A DNA stretch of 64,000 nt from a virus: the IMG/VR virus record IMGVR_UViG_3300029258_001887, one strand, 5' to 3'. The translations under genes and the position numbers were made by a program. Shown piece by piece: positions 11,607-64,000 of this stretch. Below the pieces are notes generated by a model. That model saw only the letters and a program-made list of their open reading frames with translations, had not been told where the DNA came from and did no database searches. Positions within the stretch are counted from its first letter, which is position 1, and every line of letters starts with the position of its first letter.

Positions 11607-12124
11607 TAAATATCACCCTTCGTCGAAATCCATTTTTTTCTGTTAACAATATCACTTATGTGAGATTGATGTACTCCAAACTTTGTAGCGATTTGTTGTT
11701 GTGTATATGTGCCACTAGAATAGAGTTGTCGTATACAAATTGCCTGTTTGGGAGATAATTTTCTTTGCCCACTTTTCCATGATGTGCCATAGACAATTTT
11801 ATCATGCTCATTACTAGATTGTGTTCCCCATCTTAAATTATCAGCAGCATCATTTGTTCGTACCCCATCCTTATGGCATACTTGTCCATTGGGGGGTCTA
11901 ACACCGTGAAAAGCTTCACAGACTAATGATGCAATTGTTTTAGGCTTTTTCTTTAACATAATTTTGCGATAGCCGGTATGTTTTTTGTCAATTTGTGGTT
12001 TCATTAAATGCCATTTATTACTTATGTGGCTATTTTTACCTCTTGTCCAGTATGATCTAATATTGCCAAGACTAGATACTTGATATCCTGGAAAACCAAC
12101 CACATTTTTCCATTGTTCGGTCAA
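11606..12124 (-). CDS. NUMOD4-HNH homing endonuclease
   Basis: W..V.GFPGYQVSSLG, HKDG...N...NLRWGT, C-terminal HTH. AT-rich relative to flanks. Confidence 0.88.
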   Translation of the reverse strand: MTEQWKNVVGFPGYQVSSLGNIRSYWTRGKNSHISNKWHLMKPQIDKKHTGYRKIMLKKKPKTIASLVCEAFHGVRPPNGQVCHKDGVRTNDAADNLRWGTQSSNEHDKIVYGTSWKSGQRKLSPKQAICIRQLYSSGTYTQQQIATKFGVHQSHISDIVNRKKWISTKGDI

Positions 12125-13077: not shown

Positions 13078-13609
13078 TGTGACCTTTCCACAGCTTACGT
13101 CGCTTGATGGCACTAATGGTAGATTGAACAACATTAAATTTTCTGGCTATAGACACCTGGGTATGCGTCTTCAAAAGTTTCCTGATTTCAGTTACGTCTC
13201 TAGCCGTCAATTTGCTACAACCATGTTCTTCTCCGCTCGCAGGATTCTTGGGGCACACTGATCTTCCGTGTCTGACAATATCTGCTTTATTATCAAGATT
13301 GTCCCCCCACGCAAGATTACCAACATGATTATTATGTGGATTGCCATCCAAGTGTCTTATCTCCGGTTTTCCAACGGGTGGAGGACCTATAAAAGCTCTA
13401 GCGACCAGACGATGAATTCGTTTATTTACCTTATGGTTAAACCCATCGTACATAGATACCATTAAATATCCCTTTGAGGTTTTCCATGGACGGAGAATAC
13501 GACCCACAACTGCACCACCATAACGGCCTATCCTTCGGACTCTGCCGCAATCCGAAACTTCATATATGCCCTCGTATCCCACTACTGGCTTCCAAGTTTC
13601 CCTAGTCAC
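13067..13609 (-). CDS. NUMOD4-HNH homing endonuclease
   Basis: ETWKPVVGYEGIYEVSD.G, HRLVA.AF, HLDGN..NN...NL. Confidence 0.9.
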   Translation of the reverse strand: MTRETWKPVVGYEGIYEVSDCGRVRRIGRYGGAVVGRILRPWKTSKGYLMVSMYDGFNHKVNKRIHRLVARAFIGPPPVGKPEIRHLDGNPHNNHVGNLAWGDNLDNKADIVRHGRSVCPKNPASGEEHGCSKLTARDVTEIRKLLKTHTQVSIARKFNVVQSTISAIKRRKLWKGHNDE

Positions 13610-14795
13610 CTTTTTGCAACCTTTCACCGATACCGTCTCTGTTGATGTAATATGTTCTGTCCCAAAATGGGAAGAATTCTGGTGAAAAACGAGTGATGCT
13701 TCCCTTGATATCCTGTTGCAAGGTTACGATACAGAATCCAACGTGGGCCGCTAGTTTTCGCTTACGCATAAACCGCGTTTGATCCTGAGTGCAACCAGCC
13801 TGAACACAGTGGACGTTGCGGGGGAAGCAATACTCCTGCTTGTGGTAGTGGCCTATGATGCAAACCGCTGGCTTCTCTCCACCCTGGAACGACTCGACCA
13901 GCTTTTGGCTGGCGTATGAAAACGCATACGAGCTACCACCTCCAGCGTGAATCACCTTGACGATGGCTTTCCCTTGCGGTGCCCTCAGTTCAAAGTCGGC
14001 CTCCATATAGCCCATATAGATCAAGTCGTTGCGACCCTGCGCCTGAGCTTCTAGCATGAGGAAGCGACCAAATTCGATTCCTTCCCTCTGTTGGAACCAA
14101 CCTTCGTGATCGTCGCCGTCAACGAAGTAGGTGTTGATTCCTGGACGCGAAGGCCAATTGTCGATAGCATACTGGCACTGGTCGGCAATGCCGTGGGCCA
14201 GAAGTTCATGTGTGTTGAAACGGCATTCGCCGTCGATATAGTTGCCTGGGCAGAAGACAGTCGTGATGCCTCTTTTGGCAAACTCATCGTATGCTGCGTT
14301 GAGGACATCTAGTCTTTCTGCCTTGCTGCATAGGTGCATGTCGGCAACTACGCCGAATGAGATCGGCTTATCGTGGAAGTGATTTTCAAAAATAATACCC
14401 TGACCAGCTTGCTCTGCGGATTTGCCAAGCTGGATGGAACTGCCTCGCCGCATGATGATGTAGCCGCGCTCTTCCATGTCCTGGATAACCGCCAGCACAT
14501 CTTCCTCGGTCGAATGCATCTGCTCAGCGACCTTGGCTGCCGTTGTCTGCTTCTTGATCCGCCTTGCCACCTCTGACCTAAACAACGGATCACCTGGATC
14601 AATGCCGACCTGGGGGATTCCAGCCATAATGGTTTCTGCCTGAGTGATCAGCTTCCTGGCCTTCCAGATCGTTACCCCCAGTTCCTTCGCCACTTCTTCC
14701 CGAAGTGTCCCAGTGCTGCCTGCTCGGTTATGTAGTCGAATGAGCCTGATTACTTCCTGAGTCTGTTCGTCTAGTTGGGGCTTCGCATTAGCCAT
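13602..14795 (-). CDS. HTH + calcineurin-like metallophosphoesterase
   Basis: ADMH, GNYIDG, GDDHE, IH, GHYH motifs after an N-terminal HTH region. Confidence 0.8.
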   Translation of the reverse strand: MANAKPQLDEQTQEVIRLIRLHNRAGSTGTLREEVAKELGVTIWKARKLITQAETIMAGIPQVGIDPGDPLFRSEVARRIKKQTTAAKVAEQMHSTEEDVLAVIQDMEERGYIIMRRGSSIQLGKSAEQAGQGIIFENHFHDKPISFGVVADMHLCSKAERLDVLNAAYDEFAKRGITTVFCPGNYIDGECRFNTHELLAHGIADQCQYAIDNWPSRPGINTYFVDGDDHEGWFQQREGIEFGRFLMLEAQAQGRNDLIYMGYMEADFELRAPQGKAIVKVIHAGGGSSYAFSYASQKLVESFQGGEKPAVCIIGHYHKQEYCFPRNVHCVQAGCTQDQTRFMRKRKLAAHVGFCIVTLQQDIKGSITRFSPEFFPFWDRTYYINRDGIGERLQKGD

Positions 14796-19013: not shown

Positions 19014-19526
19014 TTACTCCTGCTCCGTTTCGCACTTCTGCCTCATCTTGTCGATCGCCCTACCCTTGATGCGGCAGATCGTGGAAGGGACAACGCCCTG
19101 ATCTTGGGATACTTCTCTCATTGTCTTTTCGTCAAAGAACAACCCGGCTATGACTGCACGTTCCTCTTCTGTCAGGCACGCCATCAGTTCTTCTACCATG
19201 ATGCGTGTATCCACATCGGTGTTCGGGCCAGCTATGCTCGACATCGCATCCAGCGACATAATCTGGATGCGCTTGGCTCTGTTCTCCACATTTCTCATGT
19301 GTCGGAAGATTCCGCTCAGACGGCCATGGAAAAATGTGATGAATGACCCGCTGCGCCTGTAGCAGATCATACACCTGAGTAATTCTTCCTCGGCTTGGGC
19401 TTTCAATTCCTCATTTTGTGTGTCGTCTATCCCGATTTGGAAAGCTAGCTTGTGAATCAGCGGAGCATACTGACGACGGGCCAGATCAAAGTATGCTTTA
19501 GTGATGCGACGTTGCCGTTTCATCAT
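19014..19526 (-). CDS. Sigma70-family RNA polymerase sigma factor (short, regions 2+4)
   Basis: YAPLI..LA, F.TF region 2; L.EEERAVI...KTMREVS...V...TI.RIK.RAI.KMR region 4. ATGA overlap with ClpP. Confidence 0.85.
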   Translation of the reverse strand: MMKRQRRITKAYFDLARRQYAPLIHKLAFQIGIDDTQNEELKAQAEEELLRCMICYRRSGSFITFFHGRLSGIFRHMRNVENRAKRIQIMSLDAMSSIAGPNTDVDTRIMVEELMACLTEEERAVIAGLFFDEKTMREVSQDQGVVPSTICRIKGRAIDKMRQKCETEQE

Positions 19527-20182
19527 TTCCCAAATCCTTTGCTTACCGCCTGTTCCATGCGTGGTGTCCAGATGCCATCGATCATGCCGACCTTCACAGC
19601 CTGCTGCGGTGACATCCACTTGGTTTCGCTCATTAGCTGTAGCAACTGCTTCGTGGTGACCTTCATTCTCTTGGCGAGAGCAGCCACCTTTCTCTTGTAG
19701 TCCTCTTCGAGATACCCCGTCATCTGGCCATGTCTTTCTATCGAATCTGGGGAACTCTGAATAATCACTGAATGCAACATCATAGACGAGTTGGGCGTTG
19801 CGTATCGATGCCCCTTTGCTCCGAAGGCAGCGATCATTGCGGCCATCGAATGACTCTGGCCGCGAACAATCGTGTGGATAGGACACCGACATGCCAGCAT
19901 TTGATCGATGATGGCATACCCAGAGGCGAGACATCCACCTGGGCTGTTAATGTACATATACACCGGCTCTTTGCGCAAAGAGAATAGTTGTAGGTAGCTA
20001 CAGATGTGTGTGGATGCTATTTCGTTGATTTCACCTACGACCAACAGCCTCCGCGTTCTGACCATGAACTCTTCGACTATCTCATCCAACTGGATCGGCA
20101 TAGCTAGTTCTGGCTCGACAGGGCATTCGGTTTCGGGCTCGCCGCCATTTTTGGGCTTCTCGGTGTAACGACTAAACCTCAT
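19523..20182 (-). CDS. clpP: ClpP-family protease subunit
   Basis: MYINSPGG, SMAA (catalytic Ser), MMLH, WMSP..A..GMID. Confidence 0.9.
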   Translation of the reverse strand: MRFSRYTEKPKNGGEPETECPVEPELAMPIQLDEIVEEFMVRTRRLLVVGEINEIASTHICSYLQLFSLRKEPVYMYINSPGGCLASGYAIIDQMLACRCPIHTIVRGQSHSMAAMIAAFGAKGHRYATPNSSMMLHSVIIQSSPDSIERHGQMTGYLEEDYKRKVAALAKRMKVTTKQLLQLMSETKWMSPQQAVKVGMIDGIWTPRMEQAVSKGFGK

Positions 20183-21056
20183 GTTTTTCTCCAAAGGGGT
20201 GACAACGCCTATGAACTTCCGCAAGTCGATCATGACTAATTGCCAGATAAGTCTGCGTTGTCGATAGGTGTTGATGACCCAGCAGAGCTTGCACGAGTTC
20301 GAGTTCCACACCACGATTCATAAGTGATGTGGCACAACTTCTACGCAACATGTGGGCTGTGGTGTGTTCCACACCAGCCCGACGCGAAAGGGACATCAGC
20401 ATATCGCTGACGGCACGGCGGGTCACCCGCTGCCCATTGGATTTTACGAACACAGCTTTGGTGTTGGATCGGCGCTCTGAATCCAAATATGCCCGTATTG
20501 CTTCAACACACCTTGGGGTAGTCGGAACTATTCTCTCACGACTCCCCTTGCCTTTGACTCGTATCTCTCGCCTGGAGAGGTTGATATCGTTGATGTTGAG
20601 TCCACACAATTCAGATACCCGAAGACCACTGTGGTATAGAGTCAAGACAATAGCGACATCGCGGCGAACGTTAGTGGCTCTGCATACGGGTACACGCTTT
20701 TCCACAGTGGCCACAAGAGCATCCACAGCTTCAGGTTCCAGGGCATCTGGTGTTCTCCTGCTGGTACGTACAGAATCAATCATATCCAGGGTGTTGGGGT
20801 CGAGCAGACCGAGACTGATGAGATGATGACACAGGCATCTTACAGACATACACTTACGACGCACCGTAGTCGGCTTCCGCCCACGGTGTCGCAGATTGCT
20901 AAGGAAGGTTTCAATTGATTGGGCAGTCAATTCTTGTGTCCCGATAAAATCAAGGAATTCCTGTGCATCTCTAGTGTACGCTGAAAGCGTCTCCTGTGAC
21001 AAACCAAGCTCAGTGCGGATGTATGTTTCAAAGCCGTCTATAATGGCTGTAGACAT
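20172..21056 (-). CDS. XerC/D-like tyrosine recombinase
   Basis: SAM-like N-terminus, GLRVSEL, GKG..ER, HMLRRS.AT, LLGH...TT..Y. Confidence 0.92.
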   Translation of the reverse strand: MSTAIIDGFETYIRTELGLSQETLSAYTRDAQEFLDFIGTQELTAQSIETFLSNLRHRGRKPTTVRRKCMSVRCLCHHLISLGLLDPNTLDMIDSVRTSRRTPDALEPEAVDALVATVEKRVPVCRATNVRRDVAIVLTLYHSGLRVSELCGLNINDINLSRREIRVKGKGSRERIVPTTPRCVEAIRAYLDSERRSNTKAVFVKSNGQRVTRRAVSDMLMSLSRRAGVEHTTAHMLRRSCATSLMNRGVELELVQALLGHQHLSTTQTYLAISHDRLAEVHRRCHPFGEKHEV

Positions 21057-24049: not shown

Positions 24050-24664
24050 TTATTGATTGTCAATTTTAGCTTTAGTTTTGTGTGTCAAAGACCTTTTGAT
24101 GGACCATCCTGCTTTTAGGCGATATAGGATAGTTTGTATTGAAAGTCCTGTTTCTCTCGACCACTCGGAAACAGTTTGTTTTTTATTGTTGAATGTAATC
24201 CAGCGATTATTTCTTTTGTTTCTACTCTGCTCCAGCATAGTTGACCACTTACAATTTTCTGGGCAATAATGTCCATTATTATCAATTCGATCTATTGTGT
24301 GTCGAGATGTTGGTGGCAAACCCATGTCGGCCAAGAAGTTGACGAATTTTTTCCATCTATCACACACTACGATTCCACGACCACCGTAGTTGGAATAATG
24401 TCTATGCTTTTTATTAGTGCATCTTTGAATCATTAATGACCATGCTTTATAGATTTTTGATGATTGTTTGTTTTTTGAATGGCCGTGTTTCACGCGATTA
24501 CAACCACAACTTGTTGATAAACCCATCTTCAATTTGCTAGACTGAACAATTGTTGTGTTACCGCAATCACATATACATAACCATAGTACGTGACGGTTAC
24601 TGGCGGTTCCAGCCCTTTTTATCACTGTCAGTTTACCAAATCTAAGATTTTTTAGATTCAACAT
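24050..24664 (-). CDS. HNH homing endonuclease
   Basis: FGKLTV, WLC.CDCG, YGGRGI.VC.RW, TIDRIDN.G.Y.PENC.W. Confidence 0.88.
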   Translation of the reverse strand: MLNLKNLRFGKLTVIKRAGTASNRHVLWLCICDCGNTTIVQSSKLKMGLSTSCGCNRVKHGHSKNKQSSKIYKAWSLMIQRCTNKKHRHYSNYGGRGIVVCDRWKKFVNFLADMGLPPTSRHTIDRIDNNGHYCPENCKWSTMLEQSRNKRNNRWITFNNKKQTVSEWSRETGLSIQTILYRLKAGWSIKRSLTHKTKAKIDNQ

Positions 24665-24676
24665 GAGGTATTCCAG

Positions 24677-25168
24677 CTAAGAAACAGTGTTTCCTAACAG
24701 GGTGCGCAGCGCATCACGGTTAGCGAGCGTGTCGTCTCGTCCCATGTTGTCGATGATCAACTTTCCGTCGAGATGGTCAATTTCGTGTTGCCAAATCCTG
24801 GTTGTGTTTCCATCTCCTATAAATCTCAGCGGCTTACCATTGAGACCCTCGCCAGCCAAGGTTGACGATGTTGCCCTCTGTAGCGTTACGTTCACCTTTG
24901 GCAACGATAGACATCCTTCTGTTGATTCGATGCAACCGCTGACACAACTCAGCATGGGATTCCAGATTGCCTGATCCTGCCCGTCGTGGCTCCAGACGAA
25001 CATGCGGATGTTGAGACCGACTTGGGGAGCAGCTAGCCCGACCCCACGGTTCTTACGCATGATTTTCCACATCTTGGCTGCGAGGCGAGCCCTATCTTCC
25101 TGCGACTGTTTTGGTGCTTCGACGCAGGTGGCCAATAATCTCGGGTCTGGGTAGTAGACTAATCGCAT
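24677..25168 (-). CDS. def: Peptide deformylase
   Basis: GVGLAAPQ, EGCLS, QHEIDHLDG. Confidence 0.95.
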   Translation of the reverse strand: MRLVYYPDPRLLATCVEAPKQSQEDRARLAAKMWKIMRKNRGVGLAAPQVGLNIRMFVWSHDGQDQAIWNPMLSCVSGCIESTEGCLSLPKVNVTLQRATSSTLAGEGLNGKPLRFIGDGNTTRIWQHEIDHLDGKLIIDNMGRDDTLANRDALRTLLGNTVS

Positions 25169-25557
25169 TTCGCTTCCTCCAACAGATGCACTCCGAACCA
25201 CTTGGACGAATGGCGGTAGAGATCAAGCCAGTCCTGGAATTGCTCATCGCTTGCTTTTGCGTCTGGCAACTCAAGCTCAGACACCGGACCAAACCACAGT
25301 TGCCGGAATACGTCTGATATCTCGCAGTGACGAACCTCGACTGTGGTATCGCCGAGACGACATCTAACGACTGTCGGGATCAGATCGTCCATTGCTTTCC
25401 TTCCTTGCAAGTAGCGTGCCAGTGATTCTTTTTGCGGCACTGCCTATCAGAAGTTTTGTTATCGGACCATGAGCGCGTATTGTTTCGCGCAGGCTACCGA
25501 CTACGATTCTGTTAATCCGTTGTTTCTCTGTTTCCTTTCTGCCCATGCCTCACCATC

Positions 25558-26159: not shown

Positions 26160-26348
26160 TTAGAGCTTGAAAGTCTTACCGATAGAGGGGCACCGCTGCA
26201 CCTCTTCGATGATCCAAGCTCGTAGTCTTGCTTCGAGCTTCTCAAGAGCATCTTTCGACACCCTGGTAATTGGCATTCCGGGACGCATACTTTTGAACTT
26301 CGCCAGGATGAACTTCTTTGTCGCAGCTTGATTAAGGATGCTCGACAT
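26160..26348 (-). CDS. Putative small histone-fold protein
   Basis: Helix, RVSKDA loop, long helix, GKTFK; 62 aa, basic. Confidence 0.5.
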   Translation of the reverse strand: MSSILNQAATKKFILAKFKSMRPGMPITRVSKDALEKLEARLRAWIIEEVQRCPSIGKTFKL

Positions 26349-26554
26349 TACCTACCTCCCACTTGACGGTTCCGGGTACTTGTGGTGCGCCGCTGGCGAT
26401 ACTCAGGCTTGTCTTTTTGCGACACTCGCTTTCCCAGAGCCTCTTCGATTTCGCCAATGAAAGACGAGCATTCTGGGCCAATAAATCCTTCTCCGTCTAT
26501 AGAACAGTTGCCATCATGATCAATTTCAATAACAATTTGTTTTTGTTGTCTCAT
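26348..26554 (-). CDS. DUF2997-family protein
   Basis: I.I..DG....EGF.G.EC......IEEALG.....KPEY. Confidence 0.78.
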   Translation of the reverse strand: MRQQKQIVIEIDHDGNCSIDGEGFIGPECSSFIGEIEEALGKRVSQKDKPEYRQRRTTSTRNRQVGGR

Positions 26555-26556
26555 AT

Positions 26557-27069
26557 CTATTGCCTTTCAACTTCTTTGTATGTTTTTCCGCTTTTGATTT
26601 CACTAATTATAGAGTGGCTGACGCCCAGTCTTTTTGATATGGATGTGACAGTCTCGCCATCGACAATGGCAAGCAGTATGTTTTTTACTTGCTCTACCGA
26701 GAACTTCGCCTGTGCATTTTTGCTACCCGTAGTAGCGGTTCCATGGCGAATAGCATCTTGCATATTGTCTGATCTTGTTCCCCAGGCTAGGTTGCGACTA
26801 TTATTGTTCGTTTTGCACCCATCGAGATGCAGTACTTCGTGTTTATTAGAAGGGCGTGGGCCAACGAATGTTTCGGCAACGATGGTGTGTACCCTCTTTC
26901 TGGTCCTTTTCCCATTTCGATACAAACACACCATCAAGTAGTTTCCATTGTCTGGCATCTGTGACAAAATTGTATTGGGTTGTGCTCCTTGACCGCCTTT
27001 GATGCGTTTAATACTGCCGGTATCGGATACTTGGTATATACCTTCATATCCAACCACATCTTTCCACAC
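26557..27069 (-). CDS. NUMOD4-HNH homing endonuclease
   Basis: WKDVVGYEGIYQVS, HLDG.K.NN...NLAWGT. Confidence 0.9.
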   Translation of the reverse strand: MWKDVVGYEGIYQVSDTGSIKRIKGGQGAQPNTILSQMPDNGNYLMVCLYRNGKRTRKRVHTIVAETFVGPRPSNKHEVLHLDGCKTNNNSRNLAWGTRSDNMQDAIRHGTATTGSKNAQAKFSVEQVKNILLAIVDGETVTSISKRLGVSHSIISEIKSGKTYKEVERQ

Positions 27070-27071
27070 AG

Positions 27072-27674
27072 TTACTTCTCCGCTTCGTGTAGGAGTTCTT
27101 CGAAGTATGCCTGACTTTCTGCTTCGGTCAGACGACCCTTGAGATTCTTTTTGCGCTTGGCTGCTAGTGCCAAGACATCGGATGCGTCACATAGGCAGTC
27201 AATAGCCGACTTGAAACTACCCAGGTCTGCCTGGATTTGTGCTAGTCCCATGACACGTTTTTTTCTACGTTGCGTTATGATCTCTGTTTCCGTGTATATG
27301 GATATACTGACACCTGATTCCCATTTTGCCGTGATACAAACGCCTTCGTGACCCCAGATTCTAAGATAGTAAGTTCGTGGTTTCAATAGACGTTTGAGTT
27401 CGGCTACCGCCGCAGCTTTGGTGAGGGTTGACTTTGCGCCAACAGGGACGAAACCACGTCCGGTTTCCAGGATAACTCCTGGGGACTTTGAGCACTGCAT
27501 ACACTCGTTGTCCGGTTTCATACTGAAGTCACAGTGGGTGGTTGGGATGCGTCTACCACACACAGTGTGTGCCATCTGACGATCATTAAGAATCGAATCG
27601 ACGTGACGAACACGGTGCCACACAGCCCCTTTGCGACTGAGTGATTTCCGGTACCATCCTCTGAACACTTCCAT
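27072..27674 (-). CDS. Hypothetical protein
   Basis: Operon-packed ORF. Confidence 0.5.
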   Translation of the reverse strand: MEVFRGWYRKSLSRKGAVWHRVRHVDSILNDRQMAHTVCGRRIPTTHCDFSMKPDNECMQCSKSPGVILETGRGFVPVGAKSTLTKAAAVAELKRLLKPRTYYLRIWGHEGVCITAKWESGVSISIYTETEIITQRRKKRVMGLAQIQADLGSFKSAIDCLCDASDVLALAAKRKKNLKGRLTEAESQAYFEELLHEAEK

Positions 27675-28080: not shown

Positions 28081-28347
28081 TCAACTGTCACTCTCGCCAT
28101 CGTATCGGTCTCCCCCAGGTGAGAAATGTTCTATTTCCCACTCGATTGCTGTTTCTCGGTTCGTATGAGTGTACAAGACTTCTCCGCTGAGAGATAATAC
28201 TTCCCAGCTTTGCTTTGCCTCGTTGAACTCAACGTTAGACGCCTTGCGCACTTTGACAATTTCCCCGATGGAATATAAATCGATGATGTCGGTATATAGG
28301 CACCTAACATTCCCATCCTCGTCAATCTCCAGTGTTGTTTTGTTCAT
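28081..28347 (-). CDS. Small conserved protein of the type I associate with DUF1257/DUF2997 clusters
   Basis: I..DG.VRCLY...IDL..IG....R.AS.VE...W...R..A..WE pattern (from memory). Confidence 0.55.
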   Translation of the reverse strand: MNKTTLEIDEDGNVRCLYTDIIDLYSIGEIVKVRKASNVEFNEAKQSWEVLSLSGEVLYTHTNRETAIEWEIEHFSPGGDRYDGESDS

Positions 28348-28981
28348 TTGGTTTTGCTCCATTCGCTTTTGTTGTTAGCGCTTTGGCAACAGACCAGTTG
28401 TATCTAAAAATACGACACCAAAGAGTGTGTCTATTTATGCCCAACTCTTCTGACCACTCAGGCAGACTTTTGGTTTTGCCATCATATGTTAAGATACAAT
28501 TGTTCCGTTTGTTCCTGGCATTTTGTTGTGGTTCTACCCAGCGACAATTTCCAGGTTTATAGTGATCATTATTATCTATTCTATCTATTTGACACGAAAC
28601 TGTTGGTGGCTCACCCATGTCTGCTAGAAAATTTTCGAATTTTTTCAACCTTCGACACACCCCAATCCCTCTCCCACCGTACAGATAATAATACTGATGA
28701 TTTGGATTTTTACATCGGGAGATAATGTTTTCCCATGTTCTGTACGTCTTGCTTTTCTGATTGTTTTTTCTGTGGCCATGTTTTGTGAATCTGGTTGCAG
28801 ATTTTTCGTTTTTAAGACAACCACAGCTTTTTGTGTGCACGCTTCTTAGGCTATAACCAGACACAAGATGGGTGTTGCCACAACAACACCTACATAACCA
28901 CATTACTTCTTTGCTGTGGCTACTACCACACCGTTTCATGACCACAAGCCTGCCGAATTTCTGTCCAGTCAGATCAATCAA
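28322..28981 (-). CDS. HNH homing endonuclease
   Basis: MIDLTGQKFGRL, YGGRGI, IDRIDN..Y.PGNCRW. Confidence 0.88.
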   Translation of the reverse strand: MIDLTGQKFGRLVVMKRCGSSHSKEVMWLCRCCCGNTHLVSGYSLRSVHTKSCGCLKNEKSATRFTKHGHRKNNQKSKTYRTWENIISRCKNPNHQYYYLYGGRGIGVCRRLKKFENFLADMGEPPTVSCQIDRIDNNDHYKPGNCRWVEPQQNARNKRNNCILTYDGKTKSLPEWSEELGINRHTLWCRIFRYNWSVAKALTTKANGAKPNEQNNTGD

Positions 28982-53751: not shown

Positions 53752-54297
53752 TCATACCGCCCCCCTCGCTTTCCGTTCGAGACTGGCGATCATTTCCGCT
53801 CTGGCTTTGCGCTCTCTCCGCAGCATCCGGCGACGTGGTTGTTTCTTGATTCGAGCCAGTTCCTTCTGCGCCTTGACCACTTCCGGGTCACGTTGCGCCA
53901 TCTGGATTTCGGCAGACGAGACCAGACCACACCTGCCCCCATCGACCCGCCTTGGCCTACGGGTAGCCGTCGCGTTCGCCGACTTCCGCCGAACCAGCGT
54001 GTGGCGTTTCTTCTTGAATTGTCCGTCGAGCCCGACTTCCATCTGCACTTCAGACTGGCCCTTGCGCCGTGTCGTGAATCCCATCCGACCATCGCCGCAC
54101 TTGATCCTCTGCCAGTCTTCCCCGCCGAACCGCTTGCCGCCCTTGACCGGGACGCAGAACTCAGACCGGGCGAACCGATTACTCTCGGCCCACTGCCGCG
54201 CCTCCCCTTCGAGACGATTGTACCCGTACCCGTCCCCGCAGCTTGTAGCGCCGGGTTTTTCGCGTTTACAGCACCGACAAGGCTGTTTCTCGGACAT
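53752..54297 (-). CDS. Basic hypothetical protein
   Basis: ORF with GGGGG RBS. Confidence 0.5.
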   Translation of the reverse strand: MSEKQPCRCCKREKPGATSCGDGYGYNRLEGEARQWAESNRFARSEFCVPVKGGKRFGGEDWQRIKCGDGRMGFTTRRKGQSEVQMEVGLDGQFKKKRHTLVRRKSANATATRRPRRVDGGRCGLVSSAEIQMAQRDPEVVKAQKELARIKKQPRRRMLRRERKARAEMIASLERKARGAV

Positions 54298-54730
54298 TTT
54301 GTACCCCCTTTGTAGTACAAGACGTTAGCTAGCGCCACCACACGACGATAGCCCACAAGATTCAAGGAATCAGGTACGCTTTTTGTATCTAGCGCCACCC
54401 TCACCCACTCTGCCCCACGCGCCACCACCAACCCCCACCGACCAGTGCAGAATCGTATATAGGAACACACACAGGCCAAACTAGACTAGGATCGCTCTTG
54501 ACTTTGCAGTGCTTCGCAACCCCGTTTTTGACCCTGTGAGCCCCGATTTTGCGCCAGTCAGCTATCATGCCCCCACTAACAAGAACACCAAGCCCCACGC
54601 AAGCCTGAGCGAGCCAGCGTTTCTTGAAGCTCGATTTTGTACCTGCATCAGAGGCACACCAAGACTACCCCGAAAAACCCCGGAAAGTCTCAAAAAAACC
54701 CCGGATAGTTTCTCAGGACAAGGTGTAGTT

Positions 54731-55471
54731 TGAAAGGGTCGATAACAGCGCCAGCAGCGCAGCAAGAAATCCCTGACGAGAACGCACAGTCGATGCCGTA
54801 GAGGCTTGGACCTATGCGCCCATCAGGGACTTTTTGCCACGCTGCCAGACCGTAATCTGACAACGTGACTTTATGACTCACGCCCCGGTGAATTCTCGCT
54901 GGCAATTCATGACTCCGGGACGGTCTCGTTGGAGTCTTGTTTTAACGACTGATCGAGTCGAGACTGCCGCGCCAGTGCGGTGGTTCAGTTTATTCAACCC
55001 GTCCGTCGTGTCGTGTCGTTCGGCTACATCAGAATCGGGCAGACGCTATCACACAGCGCGCCACGAGACTGAGCCATTCCAACAAACCTAGAACCGCGCC
55101 ACTATCCAACCCGCCGACCCTCGCGCCCTCAGCAGGGACGTTTCAGACCTTTGCGAAAGAAATCGTTGTGACGAAATTTACAGGGTTTGTTATTGGAAAT
55201 GCCTATCCCACGACAATGTTTGAAGCCTACACCAGACGTTACGGCGGATTCCCATGACGGACCGTAGAATAGTCAACACGACTTGTCCTTTTGCGTCTTG
55301 CTGCCCCAATGCTGAATCGGAGCCCATTGCCAGACGTACAAGGAATCGTGCAGACGATTCGCCACTTATCCCGCCCACGCCATGACGGCGCAGACCGAGC
55401 CCGCATTTCGGACTCTGCGTTTTGCCGCTGCTCAGGACTGGCGTTCGACCGATAACCGTTGACCCTTTTCA
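54731..55471 (-). ncRNA. Large structured ncRNA candidate (~740 nt)
   Basis: End-to-end pairing, long G-U-containing hairpins, no credible ORF. Confidence 0.5.
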
Positions 55472-55736
55472 GACCCGGAGCGCACGTCCTGCGCGCCTGA
55501 CAGACCCTACCGAGGCGACTATCGGACTACTACCCAACCCCTTCCGGGAATACCCGACGCTTATCGGACCCCCCGCTGTGGTTGGTTATGGGAACCGCTG
55601 ACCCTAGATGGTGGGCCTATAACGACAGGGTGCTACCCTGACAAGCGATTCAATCCAGACTTTAAGCCTGAATGCCCATCGGTCCACGCCCCCAGCGCTC
55701 GACTAGGGGCGCGGTGCGGCAGGCACTCCGCAGAGA

Positions 55737-56048
55737 CTACTTGCCCAGTGCGCTGAACGCCTTGCGAGTAGCGCCGACGCTGTTCCGGCGACCGAGCAGA
55801 CTCTCGGCAATCACCGCAGCATTATCGGAGCCGAACCCGAGACTCTTATCGGGCGTGTACCCCGCGCCTTCCTCGATCTGACGCTCCAAGACTTCCCACG
55901 CTTCCGTGAGCGCGGCGATGGCGTCGTCGAGACTGTCGTACCCGGACGCGGCATCGACGATGCGCTTCGCGCCACGGTAGACGGCAGCGTTGGCCAGAAA
56001 AGTATCGGACCCAAACTCGACCTGCGTTCCGGTGGCATTATCGGACAT
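55737..56048 (-). CDS. Hypothetical protein
   Basis: GGGAG RBS; downstream of a sigma70-type promoter. Confidence 0.6.
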   Translation of the reverse strand: MSDNATGTQVEFGSDTFLANAAVYRGAKRIVDAASGYDSLDDAIAALTEAWEVLERQIEEGAGYTPDKSLGFGSDNAAVIAESLLGRRNSVGATRKAFSALGK

Positions 56049-56274
56049 CTTACGTCTCCCTACAGGTGACGCCCGTCCCATTATGCCCAGACTACCCCGT
56101 CCAGACTATAGGACGGGCAAGTAGTGAACCAGACACAGAACAGTTATTCGGACCTACATTGCACAGGCCACTTATTATCGGCGGTTCTGATAACCGCGTC
56201 GGGTTGCGTCCGAAAACACGCGCCGGACCCCAACGTCCGTTTTCGTGTTCTCGTTTTCTTTAATCTTACATTAT

Positions 56275-56303
56275 ACTATACCCCTAGTTATACAAAAGGT
56301 CAA
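56275..56303 (-). promoter_or_regulatory. Sigma70-type promoter
   Basis: TTGACC-N17-TATAGT. Confidence 0.7.
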
Positions 56304-57442
56304 TGCGAGATCCGTTTTTTTTCATCGGCGTTTTTGGGCTTCAATCCACGATCTTATCGCACTTCGACCGATAATATCGAATTATAACAACGTCCGCTTT
56401 CGTGTGTCCGATAATACCGACCTTTTTGAGCTAGTCCGAGAAAACCCCGTTTTTATACGCCCAGAAGGTCGATTTTCCCGGACCTTCCGATAAAACAGCT
56501 TACGCTAGTCCTATAACTCGGCCACTTCGTCCGATAAAACCGGCCTGGAGCGGAAAACCGCGATATTATCTACCCTTTCCGATAATCTGCACGTCCGAAT
56601 GTGCAAAACCGCCCGCAGATACAAGAAAACGTGGACATTATCACACACACCAAACTAGTTCCCGGACAGAACCGATAAAACGCCCGGCGCAAAGTCCGAT
56701 AAATTACTGGGTCCGCTCCTTGGTCCGATAACCTTTGCCCGACGCAAAAGGGTCCGATAACGTCCCGATATGCAAACGTCCTATAACTTCATTCTGGCTG
56801 TAGTCCGATAACTCGTGCTTGCGCTATAGTCCCATAATATAGCGCTATGGACCTATAACCTTTCACGGGCCAACGTCCGATAACATAGCGCGGTCGGCCT
56901 ATGTCCGATAACTCCGAGGCATCGGTTGTTCGTCCGATAATGTCACGTTTTTTCGCAAAAAAACTCACATTCGATATTCTAGGCCACGTCCTAGAATATC
57001 ATGCACACGAGCACACAGGGTAAATGATTCCTGGTCAGGTCCGATAAAAGCTCACGGCGGAACGTCCGATAATTCGGAACGTCCCAGCGAGCCCCAAGGT
57101 CCGATATCACGTCGTGGTCCGAATAAGATGCGGAGTATGCCACGTCCGAGAACCACTAACCATGCGTTGAAATCCTAGTTCAATTATTCTAGGGTCCGAT
57201 AGCTCGTCGTCGCCAGCCGTAAGGTCCGATATGATGCCGAGGGCCTCTTGGTCCGATAGCTCGTCGTTGTCCAGTCTTACTGCAATGTACCTTGCCATGT
57301 TATCGCCCCTACCACATTGCCAAGGTTATCAGAACCATGTAAAGTACCGTTTTAATCCAGAATCGTGTCTCACGTCCCATAATTCGGTCCTCCCCAGAGC
57401 GAGGTAGGGTCCGAAAACCCTACCCCGCCCAACGTCCGAGAA

Positions 57443-57817
57443 CTACATGCCAGCGTTTCCGCACGCATCGTGCGCAGTTATCGGGCGAGCCGAAGCATTA
57501 TCGGCCACTAGGCGCTCGTCGAATCGGCCTACGTTATCGGCCTCGTCCACGTCCGAGAACATGAGCTTGCCGATATACCCATAATTGTTGCCCAGATTGC
57601 GTTCCAGTGCTGCTTTAGCTCGTTTCTTGGTGGTCCCAAAACCACACGCGCCGTAGGTCCGAGAATGAAACGGACCAACCACTTCCGCCCGATAACCGTG
57701 GGCGCACTTAACGTACCAGTATTGGACCGTCCGCTTTCGGGACAGTTTATACTGGATTGCTTCGTCCGATAGTGCCACACGACCCGTCTGCCCGATAACT
57801 TTCTGCTTGGTTGTCAT
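57443..57817 (-). CDS. Hypothetical protein
   Basis: GGAG RBS; promoter upstream. Confidence 0.6.
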   Translation of the reverse strand: MTTKQKVIGQTGRVALSDEAIQYKLSRKRTVQYWYVKCAHGYRAEVVGPFHSRTYGACGFGTTKKRAKAALERNLGNNYGYIGKLMFSDVDEADNVGRFDERLVADNASARPITAHDACGNAGM

Positions 57818-57863
57818 CGTAAATCTCCAAGGTCCGAAAAAGTATCGTTTTCCCTTACACTAT

Positions 57864-57891
57864 ATTATAGCATATACCAGCAGGATGTCAA
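57864..57891 (-). promoter_or_regulatory. Sigma70-type promoter
   Basis: TTGACA-N16-TATAAT. Confidence 0.75.
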
Positions 57892-58248
57892 GCCCGATAA
57901 CGAGTTTTTTTCTGGTTTTCTTGCGTCCGATAATCTGCGCCGGATTCTCTCGCGCTGAGATTTCGTGGTCCGATAACGGAACCGGTCGAATACCGATCGG
58001 TTGGTCCCATAACGATTGCAGCACCAGAGCAGTAGTCCGATAACTCCGCACACAACGATGGGGCCGATAAACTCCCAGATGATTCCGATAACAAACGTCG
58101 CGCCGATGATGATTCCGATAACCGACAAGAACAGCTTTGTAAAGTATGAGTAAACTTCCCAGCCATCGGGTTTGGCCCGATAATTCTCATCGTTTTTCTT
58201 GGTGGCGATAACCATGTCGGAATAGTCCGGTATCAAATCAGGCCCCAT
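57865..58248 (-). CDS. Hypothetical membrane protein built partly from motif codons
   Basis: AAGGAGG RBS; VIG/IIG-rich TM segment; 3' end uncertain. Confidence 0.5.
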   Translation of the reverse strand: MGPDLIPDYSDMVIATKKNDENYRAKPDGWEVYSYFTKLFLSVIGIIIGATFVIGIIWEFIGPIVVCGVIGLLLWCCNRYGTNRSVFDRFRYRTTKSQRERIRRRLSDARKPEKNSLSGLTSCWYML

Positions 58249-58273
58249 AACGTCCTCCTTTCGTGTCCACTAT

Positions 58274-58302
58274 ATTATACCATGCAATCGCCCAGAAGTC
58301 CA
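58274..58302 (-). promoter_or_regulatory. Sigma70-type promoter
   Basis: TGGACT-N17-TATAAT with TG extended -10. Confidence 0.65.
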
Positions 58303-59797
58303 GGTCCGATAACGCCTTTTTTCGGAAAAATCTTTTGGTCCTATAATGTGCCCCGCTGCGATGCGCCACGCCCTATGATATTCCTGGCACCATCCGATAA
58401 TTCCATGCAAGAAAGCACACACACGAAACCATTATACGCCACGTCCTATAATCGCGCACGGCTCAACGTCCTATAATTCTGAACGTCCTACCGAGGCCAG
58501 GGTCCGATAACACACACCAAACTGCTTCTCACATTATCGGACCTTCGCGCACGGCCCAACGTCCTATAACTCCAGCAGGTCGTCGCCGGTCAACGTCCGA
58601 TAATCTTACAGGATCGGTCCTCCGATAACATTGTTTGCGTATTCCCGAAATCCACCCGCACGTCTGATAACGTCCATGTCAACGTCCGATACTGTCCATT
58701 CTATTGTACCGATGCAACATTCCGATAATGGTAGGTGATCCTGGGTATGGTCCGGTAACCGATTCCGCAGGATGCCGTCAATTATCGGTCGTTCCCATAA
58801 TGTTCCTGCTGCTTCCGCTATCACTTGAAATTCTTCTGGTCCGCTAACTCGGTATCTTGCCATGTTATCGCTCCCTTCAACGTCTGATAATCTGGTCGCG
58901 CGGTACCCATTGTCCGATATTGTCGGCCATATCGGCGTCCGTTTTGGTCCAATAAATCTGCCAGTATTCACATCGTCGGCCCGGTTTAGTACGTCCGGTA
59001 AGATACCCAACCAGCGTATCGTGTCCGATAAGCGTAACAAGTGTCCCTTTAATCGGCTCCATGTTATCGCTCCCTTCTCAGTGTTCCGATAACTACTTCA
59101 TTCCGTAGGGTATCGTATCCGATAACTTTCTCGGTTCCGTCCGATAGCGTAACAAACACGAACTCATGTTCGTCCGATAATAGCATCCCGAACAGTCTGC
59201 CGTAGGACATGGCGAGCGCGTCCGATAAGCCGTCTTCCCGTATCGCATCGGAGTTATCGGTCGCCGGAACTTCAAGTCTTGCTTTACCTAGCATGGTACG
59301 TCTCCTGATTATCGGGCAGAGCCCACAAGGTCCGATACTAGAATGTACTGCTCACAGGCCCGATAACTCGGCCAGTTTTCGGGCGGTCGAAAGGCCGATA
59401 TTCCCGGCAATTCACGAACAGGGTTATCGGTCACAGAAACGATCTCGGCTGATTCCGATAATTTCAGCCAGTCCACTAGGTCCGATACGTAAAGCGCGGG
59501 AACCACAGCGTACATTTTGTGCCGATAATCCGTAGTCCGATAGGTAACCAGCATCCACTTCATAGTTATCACCCCTTACAGGATACGTCCGTTATAGGAA
59601 CCTTTACACCGATTAAAGCTCAGCCTGATTCCGTTTATCGCACCTAGCACAGCGATTCCAGCCACAACGTACAGGCCGTTTATCGGATCATTCGATACCC
59701 AAGCCACAACGTCCGATACTGCGTTCTCGGCTGCTTGCTTCAAGGTCTGATAATCCATCGTGTTTTCCTTTCGTGTTATCGTTTCCCCTACATTCTA

Positions 59798-59826
59798 ATT
59801 GTAGGATACAATCGGCAAGAATGCAA
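59798..59826 (-). promoter_or_regulatory. Sigma70-type promoter
   Basis: TTGCAT-N17-TACAAT upstream of ORF 59576-59758. Confidence 0.55.
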
Positions 59827-60249
59827 GAAACAAAAAGAAAAAAGTTGAGTCCGATAACCATACCTTGCATGTCATGCAAGAACATAGTCTGATAACACAT
59901 CACGTCCGATAATTTTCTCGGATCGGTTGGGATTGGTTGGTCCGATAACTTTCGCTGGGTAGGGGTCCGATAACTCGGCTCTGGGGGTATGCCCGATAAA
60001 TGCGCATGTCCGATAACTGGGGCGGGTCCGAAAACCGCTGGGGGTGCAATCACAACCGGGTCGATTTTCTAAGCGGTACCCACTTTTCGTGTACACTCTT
60101 TCTCGTATCACCCGCCTTGTCGTCCACAATCCTGTGCATTACCCGCTTTACCGTCCACGATCCTGAACATGGGGGTACCCCTTTCTCAACCCCTGAATCA
60201 ACCGCTTTATCAGACATGCCTTCACCTGAAAAAAAATCGGGGGGCTGTC

Positions 60250-60277
60250 GAACAGGGAGGGCAGTTGCACGTATAAT
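60250..60277 (+). promoter_or_regulatory. Phage promoter-like motif GAACA-N9-GTT-N3-CGTATAAT at the strand switch
   Basis: Starts the plus-strand gene run (60316 onward). Confidence 0.65.
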
Positions 60278-61877
60278 AAGATAGCAGCGAGACGCTGCTC
60301 TCAGGAGCTTCGCACATGAAGAAAGTGCATCACGTTAGCGGTTGCAACTTCAGAAACATGATCACCACCGATGACTGGAGTGAAGTCACCTGTCTCCATT
60401 GCCTGAAAAGCAGGCCAGACACGAAAAGGCGGGTACGCGATATCCATGCTACCGTGCAGCCGACACCCCGAGACCGGTACACAAACGAGCGGGAACAGCT
60501 AGACTTCACGTATCGGAGAGAGTAGATGCACTGGGTTTCGAACCTGAGAAAAGAACTCAAAGAGGCAAAAGCCCTCAACGAGAAACAACGTAGAACCATC
60601 AGTGGTCTTAAGGCTTGCCTGTGGATTGCGATGCTCGGATGGATGCTCACTTTGGCGTCTGGCATCGCTTTATGGAAACTGCAAGAGTCCCAACCCATAC
60701 CCCCGATACGTCTTTTGGAACCAGATTTTGGATGGGGGTTCAACCGTGGCAACTAGCCTACATCCCAACCACTGGGCTCTGAACTGCTTCAAACAGGTGA
60801 TGAGTACCAAGCAACTCCAGGATGTTCTCGACAAGCATGGGTCTTGGGTGTTCAAGAATGGTCAGAGGGCCGATATCAAGAGCAAGAGGATTGGTCCTGG
60901 GCGATATGAAGTGTGGCTGGAGACAACGACATGAGCGAGTATGTCCGACTCAATTGTATGTGCTGTAACAGGATCGTTGAGGGTGACGTGAACGAAAACC
61001 CCCTGGTCATTTCTCCTGTCTACAACGGCTTGATTTTCCGGGCGACGGGTAATTTCGGGTCCACGGTTTTTGACCCAATGCCTATCGGCGTAGAGGAAAT
61101 CCTACAGGTGGTCATCTGTGACGATTGTATGAAGAAGAAGGCCAAGCGGGTGACGCGGATTCATAATATCCAGCGTGAGATGACCGCCGAACGTGGAGAG
61201 TTCACACCGTGACCGTACATGACCCAGTTTGCCAAGCGATGTATGATCTTTTTTCTAAGCCAAAAGGCACTGCGACCAACGATGATTGGGCCAAAGTTTG
61301 GAAGGCGGTTGGTGACTGGAAAAGATTCCACAAGAGAATCAATGTGGATAAGACCTGTGTCGCCGCCGATATTTGTATGTCGCTGAGCAAATACGACAAG
61401 GACAATCGCAGCCCGCTACAACGACACTATTTCTGGACTGGTATTCGTGTGTGGGTGAGTTATTGGGCTAAGAATAACGGACTGGAGCCATTGGTATGTT
61501 AGCTTTCGAGATGTGTCCCAGGTGTACAAATATCCACAAGCTCTCACCAGAGAGATTGAAGCCCATGGTGTTGTCCGGTGACGATCAAAAAATGCAGTGC
61601 GATGTTTGCAACCATAGCTTCAAGCTGCCGGATTGCGAGTCGCTTCGAGAGTTGGCCCGACAGCAAAGGGGTAGGCGATACGCTGATCCCGATTGTCCAC
61701 ACTGCAAGGGTGAGGGTCGGAAGGCTGGTACCGGGATGGTTGCTGGCGAGATAATCACCTGCTCATGTGTGAGTAACAGGTTGGTTGCAGAAGCGAAGAA
61801 GTGGTATCGATGTGGCTGCGGGAATGAAATCCCGACAGGTGAGTTCTGCATCGATTGTGATTTGGAAAGGGATTTAC

Positions 61878-62672
61878 ATGAGAATCAGTGATACCCCCAT
61901 TGTCGCGTTGGACTTGGAAACCGGTGGTCTGACCCCCGGTAAGCATACGCCGTTGGCGATCGGCGCTGTTTGGCTGGACAGTCCCAGGTTACCAGTCGAT
62001 GAAACGAATTCTTTCTATGCCCAGCTTGAGTTCCCCCTCTACGTGACCACCCCTGACGCGATGAGAATTAACAAGCTCGATCTGGCAAATCCCCCCGGTC
62101 CACAAGGCACTCTCGCTAACCGAAGCTATCCTGTCGAAGAGGCCATGCACCTTTTCAAGCAGTGGCTCTCTACCCGTCTACAGGACAGACCAATCCATGC
62201 TCTCGGTATGAACGTAGGGTCTTTCGATCTCCCTATGCTACGTTCCATCTGGCAAGGCCCCTGGCCATTCCATTACCGTTCTATCGATTTGAACAGTCTG
62301 TTCTTCGCTTTGTCCCAGGTTCAGAATAAGCCATACAGTGCTGTGAAGGAAGAGGTGGTCAAGCAGGCGTGGGCCAAGAGCGAGTTCCCAGGTATGGAGC
62401 ATAACGCGCTGGCTGACGCTTGGATGGCGGTCCACGCATGGGATGAGTGTATCCGACAACTAACCAGGAATGGCAAGGATGTCGGTGAGCACATGAGATA
62501 TCTTGGTGTCTTGTCGTTGCTTGGTGATTGTTCGGAAATGGTGGATGGCGAAACCAGAGAGAGTATCGATCTGGCCCTGACCGATGCCGCACGGAATATT
62601 GACAATCTTGAAGTAAAGACTCGTGGGAATCGGGTGTGGGTCGAATTGACCGACGTTCCGAGGGGGGATTAA
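61878..62672 (+). CDS. DEDDh 3'-5' exonuclease
   Basis: ALDLETGG, N..FD, HNALADA. Confidence 0.88.
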   Translation: MRISDTPIVALDLETGGLTPGKHTPLAIGAVWLDSPRLPVDETNSFYAQLEFPLYVTTPDAMRINKLDLANPPGPQGTLANRSYPVEEAMHLFKQWLSTRLQDRPIHALGMNVGSFDLPMLRSIWQGPWPFHYRSIDLNSLFFALSQVQNKPYSAVKEEVVKQAWAKSEFPGMEHNALADAWMAVHAWDECIRQLTRNGKDVGEHMRYLGVLSLLGDCSEMVDGETRESIDLALTDAARNIDNLEVKTRGNRVWVELTDVPRGD

Positions 62673-63275
62673 ATGGCACCATGCGTTGTGAGCGAAGGCG
62701 TGAAGGCGTGGGTAACAACCACAGGAGGCCACGGGCTGAGTTCGCCGCAGTCTGAGAGCAACGTATCGGAGGGTGGTACGCCAGCGTCGGTTTCACTTTT
62801 ACCGGAGATACACTAGGATGATTCCAACCAGAGAAATCTGTAAAATTTGCTATCATGTTAATCCTATTGGATTTAAGGTGCCGCAGAAAATATGGTCAGC
62901 AGTTAATCCATTACAGGAGAATGATTGTACAATTTGTTTGTCCTGTTTTACTCGCCTTGCAGATGAAAAAATGATTAAATGGGACAAAGATATTAAATTA
63001 TTTCCAGTTAGTTTGAAAACGCATTTGGAAGGATGCAAATATGGCGATTAAAGCACCGATCTTCAAAGAAGAGGGAGTCGTCGGCAATCCTGAATTGTTG
63101 GATCAACTAAATGCGGCTGTTGAAGAATTGGCTACTCAGATGAAAGCCACCGTTCCGATAAAGAAGGGTGCGGCGAGAATCGGCTTTGGTGTGAATAAAT
63201 TACAACGTGGTATAGAGGCTGATAGGGTGATCGCCATTGCCAAGGCTATCAAATCTCTCAAAGGATGGTAGGATT

Positions 63276-63788
63276 ATGATAACAGAAACTTGGCGAGATA
63301 TTATTGGGTATGAGGGACTGTATCGGATATCGTCCGAAGGTCGCATTATGAGCCGCTACCGAAGACCGGAAGCAAAAGGACATATAAGGGAGACGTATCT
63401 CGACAGCGAAGGATATCCGCAGGTGCGATTAGTCAAGGATGGGGTTACAGTCTGTTATCGCGTTCACTATTTGGTACTGCTTTCTTTCCGTGGCCCCAGA
63501 CCCCAAGGCTACCAATGCCTTCATGGCGACGGCAATCGGCAGAATGTCAGGTTGGATAACCTTCGATGGGGTACGCAGTACGAAAATGCAGCCGATGCTG
63601 TTCGCCATGGGACACAGGTTCGTGGCGAGACCAACGGTAGGTCTAAATTGACAGAGGCCCAGGTCGCAACAATCAAGAAGTTGTTGACTGCTGGCCACAG
63701 CTTGCGCAATCTTGGTAGGCGATTTGGGGTAGATCATACGACGATTGGTGCGATAAAGCGGGGAAAGTCGTGGGGGCATCTACCATGA
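63276..63788 (+). CDS. NUMOD4-HNH homing endonuclease
   Basis: ETWRDIIGYEGLY, VH.LV, H.DGN..N..L.NLRWGT. Confidence 0.9.
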   Translation: MITETWRDIIGYEGLYRISSEGRIMSRYRRPEAKGHIRETYLDSEGYPQVRLVKDGVTVCYRVHYLVLLSFRGPRPQGYQCLHGDGNRQNVRLDNLRWGTQYENAADAVRHGTQVRGETNGRSKLTEAQVATIKKLLTAGHSLRNLGRRFGVDHTTIGAIKRGKSWGHLP

Positions 63789-64000
63789 AGCGATTCATTT
63801 TTAAGCACGTCAGGAACCACGAACATGGTTTCGCCGTGGGATTACGATTGGGTCGCCGTGGGTATCTTGGATGGCTTGGATATGGCCGACCCGTGTGGTG
63901 GAAGCCACGCTTGCTCAATGACGGGGCAAGATTAGGGTTTGGCCTTGGATGGTTGCTACTGTGTTTTCAGGTGAAGATAGTCGAGTTGGAGATTCCTAAG

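Follow-up and report, generated by a model that had tools for sequence, protein, structure and literature searches.

A polar field of dif-like XerC half-sites over the early genes of a large uncultured phage

Xer/dif recombination is among the most conserved DNA transactions in bacteria, and the mobile elements known to exploit it are all small, with no more than one or two complete dif-like sites. We describe here a 64,000-nt stretch of viral DNA (IMG/VR record IMGVR_UViG_3300029258_001887; the whole stretch is referred to as the window) from a large uncultured phage, in which about 100 copies of the 9-mer GTCCGATAA, matching the XerC-type left arm of dif and standing without partner arms, run through the first-expressed genes at a visible cost to the protein sequences. 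The same phage encodes a Xer-type tyrosine recombinase, and the combination of half-site field and recombinase points to an undescribed phage use of a universal recombination system.

Several described systems invite comparison. In E. coli, the two 11-bp halves of dif are divided between XerC, on the left, and XerD, on the right (PMC5357621), and the chromosomal site occurs singly, with its two arms set around a 6-bp crossover region (PMC5357621, PMC2731167). The phage sites resemble the left arm in its length of 11 bp, its asymmetry and its size, which suits one monomer. Yet, the field consists of about 100 such left arms with neither a right arm nor a crossover region, so that strand exchange is not expected. 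The integrative mobile elements exploiting Xer (IMEX), such as CTXphi, VGJphi and TLCphi, likewise place a dif-derived sequence read by Xer proteins in phage DNA (PMC4246890, PMC6744903), a likeness to the window that we draw from sequence. However, the known IMEX are small and lack arrays of half-sites, their complete dif-like sites numbering one or two, whereas the window phage is about 165 kb long, lacks a core site and encodes its own Xer-type enzyme.

Partner-less Xer sites have a precedent at the Bacillus subtilis terminus, where XerD, in the summary given by PMC12322038, unloads SMC (structural maintenance of chromosomes) complexes independently of recombination (Karaboja 2021, PMC7897262). 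These half-sites, as described there, act as a recombination-independent landmark for a DNA motor; they are of the XerD rather than the XerC type, chromosomal and only a handful, as opposed to about 100 copies in the phage, and an SMC role at the phage field would be pure conjecture. The stoperators of Cluster A mycobacteriophages (PMC9283540, PMC6550527) are similar in repeating a single asymmetric word many times, with each copy read by a monomer and oriented to transcription, and a block of RNA polymerase is their known effect as it is the proposed one of the phage field. Stoperators, however, number about 25–35, measure 13–14 bp, lie in short intergenic gaps genome-wide and bind a helix-turn-helix (HTH) immunity repressor, while the phage sites keep to 4.5 kb, extend across coding DNA and correspond to a recombinase arm. 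Finally, the plasmid sites cer and psi combine a Xer core with flanking protein-binding DNA, a layout that the compact arrays of other phage lineages resemble. The accessory DNA of cer and psi binds PepA, ArgR or ArcA. It does not consist of extra recombinase arms, in which it differs from the phage arrays.

The array and the identity of its word

Sites were defined as GTCCGATAA, exact or with at most one mismatch, on both strands of the window. There are 29 exact copies where 0.37 are expected, a number reached in none of 100 shuffles. The 25 copies on the + strand, between 56406 and 60016, are those that an initial annotation, made from the sequence alone, had listed for 56400–60020 as far above chance. 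Three further exact copies lie on the − strand within the array region (55561, 56038 and 58534), and the last, at 25459 (−), falls in a conserved coding sequence and is not a dif site. The annotation had noticed no exact copy elsewhere; the one at 25459 is the exception. Its 'dozens of variants' are likewise real: 99 sites with at most one mismatch lie in 55,400–60,100, compared to eight in the rest of the window (five in 1–53,000 and three in 60,100–64,000).

The array is strongly polar. Eighty-one of the sites with at most one mismatch, including the 25 exact ones, are co-oriented on the + strand at 56208..60034, antisense to the early genes. This main field spans genes g1–g8, their intergenic gaps and an 800-bp non-coding stretch (56300–57106), which alone holds 13 exact copies. 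A smaller group of six sites on the − strand, two of them exact (55519..56046; first positions 55519–56038), lies in and downstream of g9, such that the orientation switches at about 56050–56400. Between 56,100 and 60,100, site density is equal in coding DNA (2064 bp; 41 sites on the + and nine on the − strand) and in non-coding DNA (1936 bp; 40 and two). Nearest neighbours on the + strand are at least 17 bp apart, most commonly 25–36 bp, in keeping with the spacing of 20–40 bp first reported. The suggested 10.5-bp helical phasing was looked for in this nearest-neighbour spacing and not found. The broad notion of a zone loaded densely with protein, as opposed to a tandem repeat or a CRISPR array, is supported; for its proposed use as a centromere-like site or a packaging signal, we found no support.

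The conserved word measures 9–11 bp, with C or G at position −1 and C or T at position +10, and from −10 to +18 the window sites show no conserved positions outside it. In a full-text search of the literature for the word, the dif table of PMC2731167 was the one find of biological relevance, most of the other matches being primers. According to this table, the dif sites of Anaeromyxobacter and Myxococcus start with ACGTCCGATAAT and AGGTCCGATAAC, respectively, and the left arm reads GTCCCATAA in Geobacter and Desulfovibrio and GTCCTATAA in Syntrophus (PMC2731167). Taken together with its flanks, as (A)(C/G)GTCCGATAA(T/C), the word equals the left (XerC) arm that Myxococcales have in their chromosomal dif (PMC2731167), and the variants GTCCCATAA and GTCCTATAA are also present in the field.

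Bacterial genomes, among which the Planctomycetota stood out in a scan, give the same picture. A Thermoguttaceae genome of 8.9 Mb contains the word at background frequency and exactly one site of the form ACGTCCGATAA-TGTATC-TTATGTTTGGT. More broadly, GTCCGATAA-N6-TTATG occurs in 84 of 201 Planctomycetota genomes, almost always once, compared to 5 of 201 for a reversed control; seven Planctomycetota sites yield the consensus ACGTCCGATAA-TnTATC-TTATGTTGCGT. A second phylum has the site in 9 of 51 genomes, and one-off variants appear in single genomes of other groups. The flanks of the phage sites agree with the dif arm, having A at position −2, either C or G at −1, and T or C at the base that opens the central region, not only in the window but also in its relatives and in 545 sites of unrelated viral loci, giving a match of 11 out of 11 positions with the degenerate flanks included. 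By sequence, the word is the left 11-bp dif arm of bacterial groups that are plausible hosts.

The identification also accounts for the TTATC that had suggested a DnaA box: it is the A/T end that dif arms share, and the CACA that makes up the other half of a DnaA box is absent. A replication origin, with the sites as initiator iterons in two opposed arms, is a reading to which we give very little weight. It would fit the flip of orientation near 56.1–56.4 kb, the bipolar arrays of other phages and the nearby GC-skew switch at 60 kb. But the skew changes where transcription diverges, at about 60 kb and just beyond the end of the field as first noted, rather than at the flip; no marked AT-rich unwinding element stands out, and the lowest GC content (0.37–0.42) coincides with promoters; no initiator gene lies nearby and the replication genes are about 50 kb away; and DnaA domain IV is missing from five phage records of relatives. 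Moreover, a hundred sites over 4.5 kb of coding DNA are unlike any known origin.

The constant orientation relative to the first three early transcription units raises the question of whether the signal acts in RNA, as early mRNAs would carry about 80 copies of UUAUCGGAC that an RNA-binding protein or nuclease could bind, or that could pair with the complementary word in the g9/non-coding transcript. The weakly double-stranded RNA-binding domain (dsRBD)-like fold of g7 and the complementary word in the g9 transcript would suit this idea. Still, five copies (59849–60016) lie upstream of the first early promoter, and the arrays of other phages are bipolar and intergenic with spacings down to 14 bp, which leaves an RNA-level signal highly improbable. 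Equally improbable is a variant in which a sigma-28-like factor would use the sites as promoter-like −10 elements. CCGATAA is the core of the sigma-28 −10 element. However, no TAAA −35 element is found at the right distance, and the sites do not fit a sigma-28 (FliA) promoter (TAAA as −35, about 15 bp, GCCGATAA as −10), given that no positions outside the word are conserved and that sites lie as close as 11–17 bp.

The word also occurs outside phages in a different setting. In Pirellula staleyi (CP001848, 4401595–4415190; L260 5889–5942), two to four direct copies of the same 9-mer are found in the stretch from a tRNA gene or att-like element to a recombinase gene, and further Planctomycetota loci share this layout (L173, L196, L185, L139, L120, L198, L161, L261 and L262). 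The gene encodes a tyrosine-recombinase-like protein of about 530 aa, has at least 431 homologues and heads islands with cargo such as McrB-like genes. The island copies are spaced 11–12 or 21–23 bp apart, are preceded by T and followed by G, unlike the phage sites, and have the lineage variants GTTCGATAA and TTCCGATAA; they are probably arm-type or accessory sites. The structural model of the integrase N-domain (beta-beta-beta-alpha) was compared to lambda Int and AP2, and both were rejected as the matches were within noise (Z 3–4). Most other triple-word matches in bacterial genomes are tandem repeats in coding or intergenic DNA with a period of 9 bp or a multiple of 3, and those in Bacillaceae, Lentisphaerae and Porphyromonas were set aside as unrelated noise.

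A phage-encoded recombinase and the proposed docking of Xer monomers

A protein that could read such arms is encoded about 35 kb from the field, in a long leftward gene block. The gene at 20172–21056 (−), first noticed as a strong Phage_integrase match in the record of a relative, specifies 294 aa that match the XerD and XerC profiles over their full length (TIGR02225 XerD, 1.4e-68, 231 bits; TIGR02224 XerC, 5.4e-68, 229 bits). In the alignment to the E. coli XerD structure 1a0p, which extends over residues 6–283, the catalytic R, K, H-x-x-R, H and Y are all matched (GLRVSE, GKG..ER, H.LR, LLGH and TT..Y). Judged by the two-domain match and the catalytic set, the product belongs to the Xer family of tyrosine recombinases. 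All four relatives of at least 68% completeness have the gene, at 56–77% identity; the two relatives' records that lack it are fragments, with a completeness of 28% and 46%. Directly beside it, at 19014–19934 (−), lies the gene of a 306-aa sigma-70-family factor of the extracytoplasmic function (ECF) or SigB/F/G-like type, which likely drives middle or late transcription.

Partner arms for the sites were sought in the window. The pattern CGATAA-N5-9-TTATG for a complete dif site, which would have a left arm, a central region of 6–8 bp and a right (XerD) arm of the TTATGT type, has no match, only versions with at least one mismatch, and none of the window sites is followed by a XerD-type arm at a crossover distance of 5–9 bp. 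Monomers bound to these sites could therefore not form a recombination synapse and would instead coat the early block. In the reading towards which the evidence seems to us to lean, if not heavily, the field serves as a docking field for Xer-family recombinase monomers that cannot recombine and that act by coating, or by being titrated over, the early genes.

In molecular terms, the proposal is as follows. Some 100 co-oriented XerC-type dif half-sites would lie over the immediate-early block, which is presumed to be transcribed by the host RNA polymerase, and each site, made up of the 11-bp left dif arm and one further base, the first of the central region, would dock one Xer-family monomer. 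The phage's own Xer-type recombinase is the candidate reader, and the word ought to be recognised by host XerC as well. With rising levels of the recombinase, monomers may clamp the sites and build up a polar nucleoprotein array, which, over the early block, would stand in the way of RNA polymerase and of DNA translocases and hence shut off or insulate the early genes; the same array might also soak up free XerC-type protein. The minimum spacing of 14–17 bp in the window and in other arrays fits one recombinase clamp per site, and recombinase monomers on half-sites are known to block FtsK in an orientation-dependent manner (PMC2800217).

Several observations weigh against this proposal. On its own, E. 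coli XerC has only a weak affinity for its arm (KD >100 nM) and failed to stop FtsK (PMC2800217), meaning that a coat or sponge made of host XerC only would need higher affinity or cooperativity in the hosts of these phages. A coat read by the host protein alone would also silence the early genes too soon, since XerC is already there when infection begins. The phage recombinase, for its part, scores equally as XerC and XerD and stays below both equivalog cut-offs, and its full catalytic set hints at a real recombination role, although neither the window nor a 160-kb relative yielded a core. Lastly, in the g9 unit the word runs the other way with respect to transcription.

Another possibility is that the DNA entering the cell first carries enough half-sites to act purely as a decoy for the small host pool of XerC, with any coating of the phage's own genes being incidental. 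This would block the Xer-dependent integration or excision of rival dif-integrating elements and satellites, or the resolution of host dimers. Such a decoy would explain why the word equals a host-type dif left arm, why about 100 sites per genome far exceed any regulatory need and why unrelated phages without a shared protein use the same word; carriers of dif cores that rely on host Xer occur in the same collections, so Xer-dependent rivals do exist. A decoy, however, requires neither strict co-orientation nor confinement to the early block, it leaves the lineage's own Xer-type protein unexplained and it meets the same problem of weak binding by E. coli XerC, all of which makes it an unlikely sole function. 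The sponge for a host DNA-binding protein considered in the initial annotation comes close to the docking of Xer monomers favoured here.

A bolder version of the docking proposal combines these elements. The phage Xer-type protein, together with captured host XerC, would clamp the roughly 100 half-sites into a polar barrier that switches off the host-takeover block, insulates it from RNA polymerase, FtsK and SMC-type motors and starves dif-integrating rivals of XerC, and such barriers would have arisen in several unrelated lineages whose hosts have the dif left arm ACGTCCGATAA. We regard this full scheme as speculative and, taken as a whole, doubtful.

Should the sites be bound, the field would represent a new, non-recombinational use of a tyrosine recombinase, whether in the control of viral genes or in conflicts among mobile elements, and the repeat field itself would have a simple explanation. 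The equality of phage word and host dif arm would further allow hosts to be predicted from sequence only, providing a testable link from uncultured phages to hosts of the Planctomycetota or Myxococcota type.

Recurrence in other viruses and complete dif cores

The array is not peculiar to the window. In IMG/VR, at least 80 stretches contain three copies of the word at short distances, as opposed to six for a one-base control word, and at least 69 viral loci from unrelated lineages have four or more exact copies at irregular spacing, with GC contents from 0.31 to 0.65. Among these loci are relatives of the window phage (contigs of 76–168 kb), in which both the early genes and the field are retained, with their orientation to each other unchanged. 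The other lineages are unrelated, have genomes of 40–100 kb, some with a giant open reading frame (ORF), and carry compact intergenic clusters of 4–17 sites spaced down to 14 bp, often with one arm of the array per orientation. This recurrence, the identity of the word as a XerC arm, the phage Xer-type gene and the dif cores described below are new here.

Some early-block relatives have been deposited within metagenome-assembled genomes (MAGs), namely CP070695.1, labelled 'Heimdallarchaeota' (88001–96000; L177), and a 160-kb contig in a 'Chloroflexi' MAG, the source of protein P0009. These placements are most likely binning or assembly carry-over, and their labels are therefore unusable as host evidence.

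Other readers common to the arrays were considered. A whole-genome protein comparison between the window lineage and one unrelated array lineage found no shared DNA-binding protein. HNH endonucleases recur near arrays and were rejected because they are multi-copy homing genes and absent from one complete array-bearing genome; the AAA+ ATPases that accompany some arrays belong to the BCS1 type, do not resemble DnaA and are not universal; and a small beta-rich protein beside the arrays of five loci is absent from other lineages. One of the very few proteins common to the window and an unrelated array-bearing lineage is a 63-aa product with a histone-fold-like sequence pattern (RVSKDALEKLE...GKTFK; 26160–26351, −; counterpart at G004 24994–25251). 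Arrays of different lineages are also adjoined by AT-rich TTTGAAA-type repeats and G-rich GGGGnTACCCC-type palindromes (L113 3780–3830, L040 5060–5100, L013 6200–6290 and 60026–60200 in the window), which suggests a common control-region layout.

In several unrelated phage loci, the array includes exactly one complete dif-like core, composed of the left arm, 6 bp and TTATGT with a Planctomycete-like right arm. No integrase or tyrosine recombinase was found in two complete genomes of one such lineage, G003 and G004, which thus combine a dif-like site with the lack of an own recombinase as IMEX do; the window has neither property. These core-bearing, integrase-less lineages look like Xer-exploiting elements with extra left arms beside the core.

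Such cores bring up the possibility that the field of the window phage, too, provides accessory sequences for a genuine Xer site whose core has diverged or lies elsewhere, and that it serves genome-multimer resolution or integration at the host dif. The field would then raise the local recombinase concentration and set directionality, similar to the accessory DNA of cer and psi, and the phage recombinase, which looks catalytically competent by sequence, would suit this role. Yet, not only the window but also the 160-kb relative is devoid of a core (the best match in the latter has two mismatches), a 4.5-kb field through nine genes far exceeds any known accessory region and the genome looks lytic in type. 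Taken together, we consider an accessory function quite unlikely for the window phage.

Early genes, promoters and neighbourhood

The field covers nine small genes (g1–g9), all on the − strand and with strong ribosome-binding sites, none of which matched a family in Pfam or PHROGs; the same is true of the small rightward genes. The first five encode early ORFans: g1 (59576..59758; 60 aa, hydrophobic), g2 (59309..59563; 84 aa) and g3 (59064..59294; 76 aa), the latter two kept in relatives, followed by g4 (58877..59062; 61 aa) and g5 (58606..58863; 85 aa). The product of g6 (57865..58248; 127 aa) has a hydrophobic middle and a basic C-terminal tail, g7 (57443..57817) encodes 124 aa with 58 homologues, none of them named, and g8 (57107..57298; 63 aa) is again an early ORFan. 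The last gene, g9 (55737..56048; 103 aa), has its own promoter and carries the motif in the opposite orientation, where it is translated as SDN or SDT. On the other side of the switch, the word is translated in all three frames (LSD, VIG and YRT; in g2 as YRT or LSD), and the residues it encodes are among the most conserved of the early protein families. It follows that the DNA signal constrains the proteins and not the reverse.

Four sigma-70-like promoters were found by a scan of the − strand, matching the four host-type promoters of the initial annotation. One is a consensus sigma-70 promoter at 57864..57891 (TTGACA, 16-nt spacer, TATAAT) with a motif variant abutting its −35 box; the others are sigma-70-like and lie at 58274–58302, 56381–56410 and 56275–56303, with −35 boxes starting at 58302, 56410 and 56303, respectively. 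A fifth promoter at about 59798–59826 (−) was called by eye only.

The early block also offers a candidate for a dedicated reader other than a recombinase, in that the sites could be operators, or a kind of stoperator, for a different sequence-specific phage protein such as g7, the match to dif being coincidental. In six related contigs, g7 does lie inside the field. However, it has no relative in other array-bearing lineages, and its alpha-beta-beta-beta-alpha model showed at best a weak likeness to dsRBD or HicB in fold searches (Z below 5). A coincidence is itself difficult to reconcile with an 11-of-11 match that includes degenerate flanks and with the dif cores in other arrays, and we therefore hold this explanation to be very unlikely. 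A classical stoperator system, genome-wide, intergenic and read by an HTH repressor, was rejected because nearly all sites (99, compared to eight elsewhere in the window) fall into one 4.7-kb zone, where half are in coding sequence. Among g1–g9, nothing repressor-like turned up, and the g7 profile showed no relation to the N-domain of the island integrases. DNA and protein searches of GenBank phages revealed no cultured relatives of the field or of g7.

The remaining genes of the window include those for DNA polymerase, primase, helicase and ribonucleotide reductase. Downstream of g9, at 54250–55740 (−), about 1–1.4 kb is devoid of long ORFs, GC-rich (0.58) and 71–84% conserved with relatives, which is above the conservation of neighbouring genes. 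This region holds conserved copies of the word, and some of its stem changes look compensatory, making it a candidate structured non-coding RNA; an Rfam scan of 51–62 kb matched no family. Finally, the window is rich in paralogous HNH-type homing-endonuclease genes with NUMOD4, HNH_3 and HTH modules (63237–63788, 28322–28981, 24050–24664, 26557–27186, 13067–13723 and 11606–12148), one of which adjoins the field both here and in two relatives.

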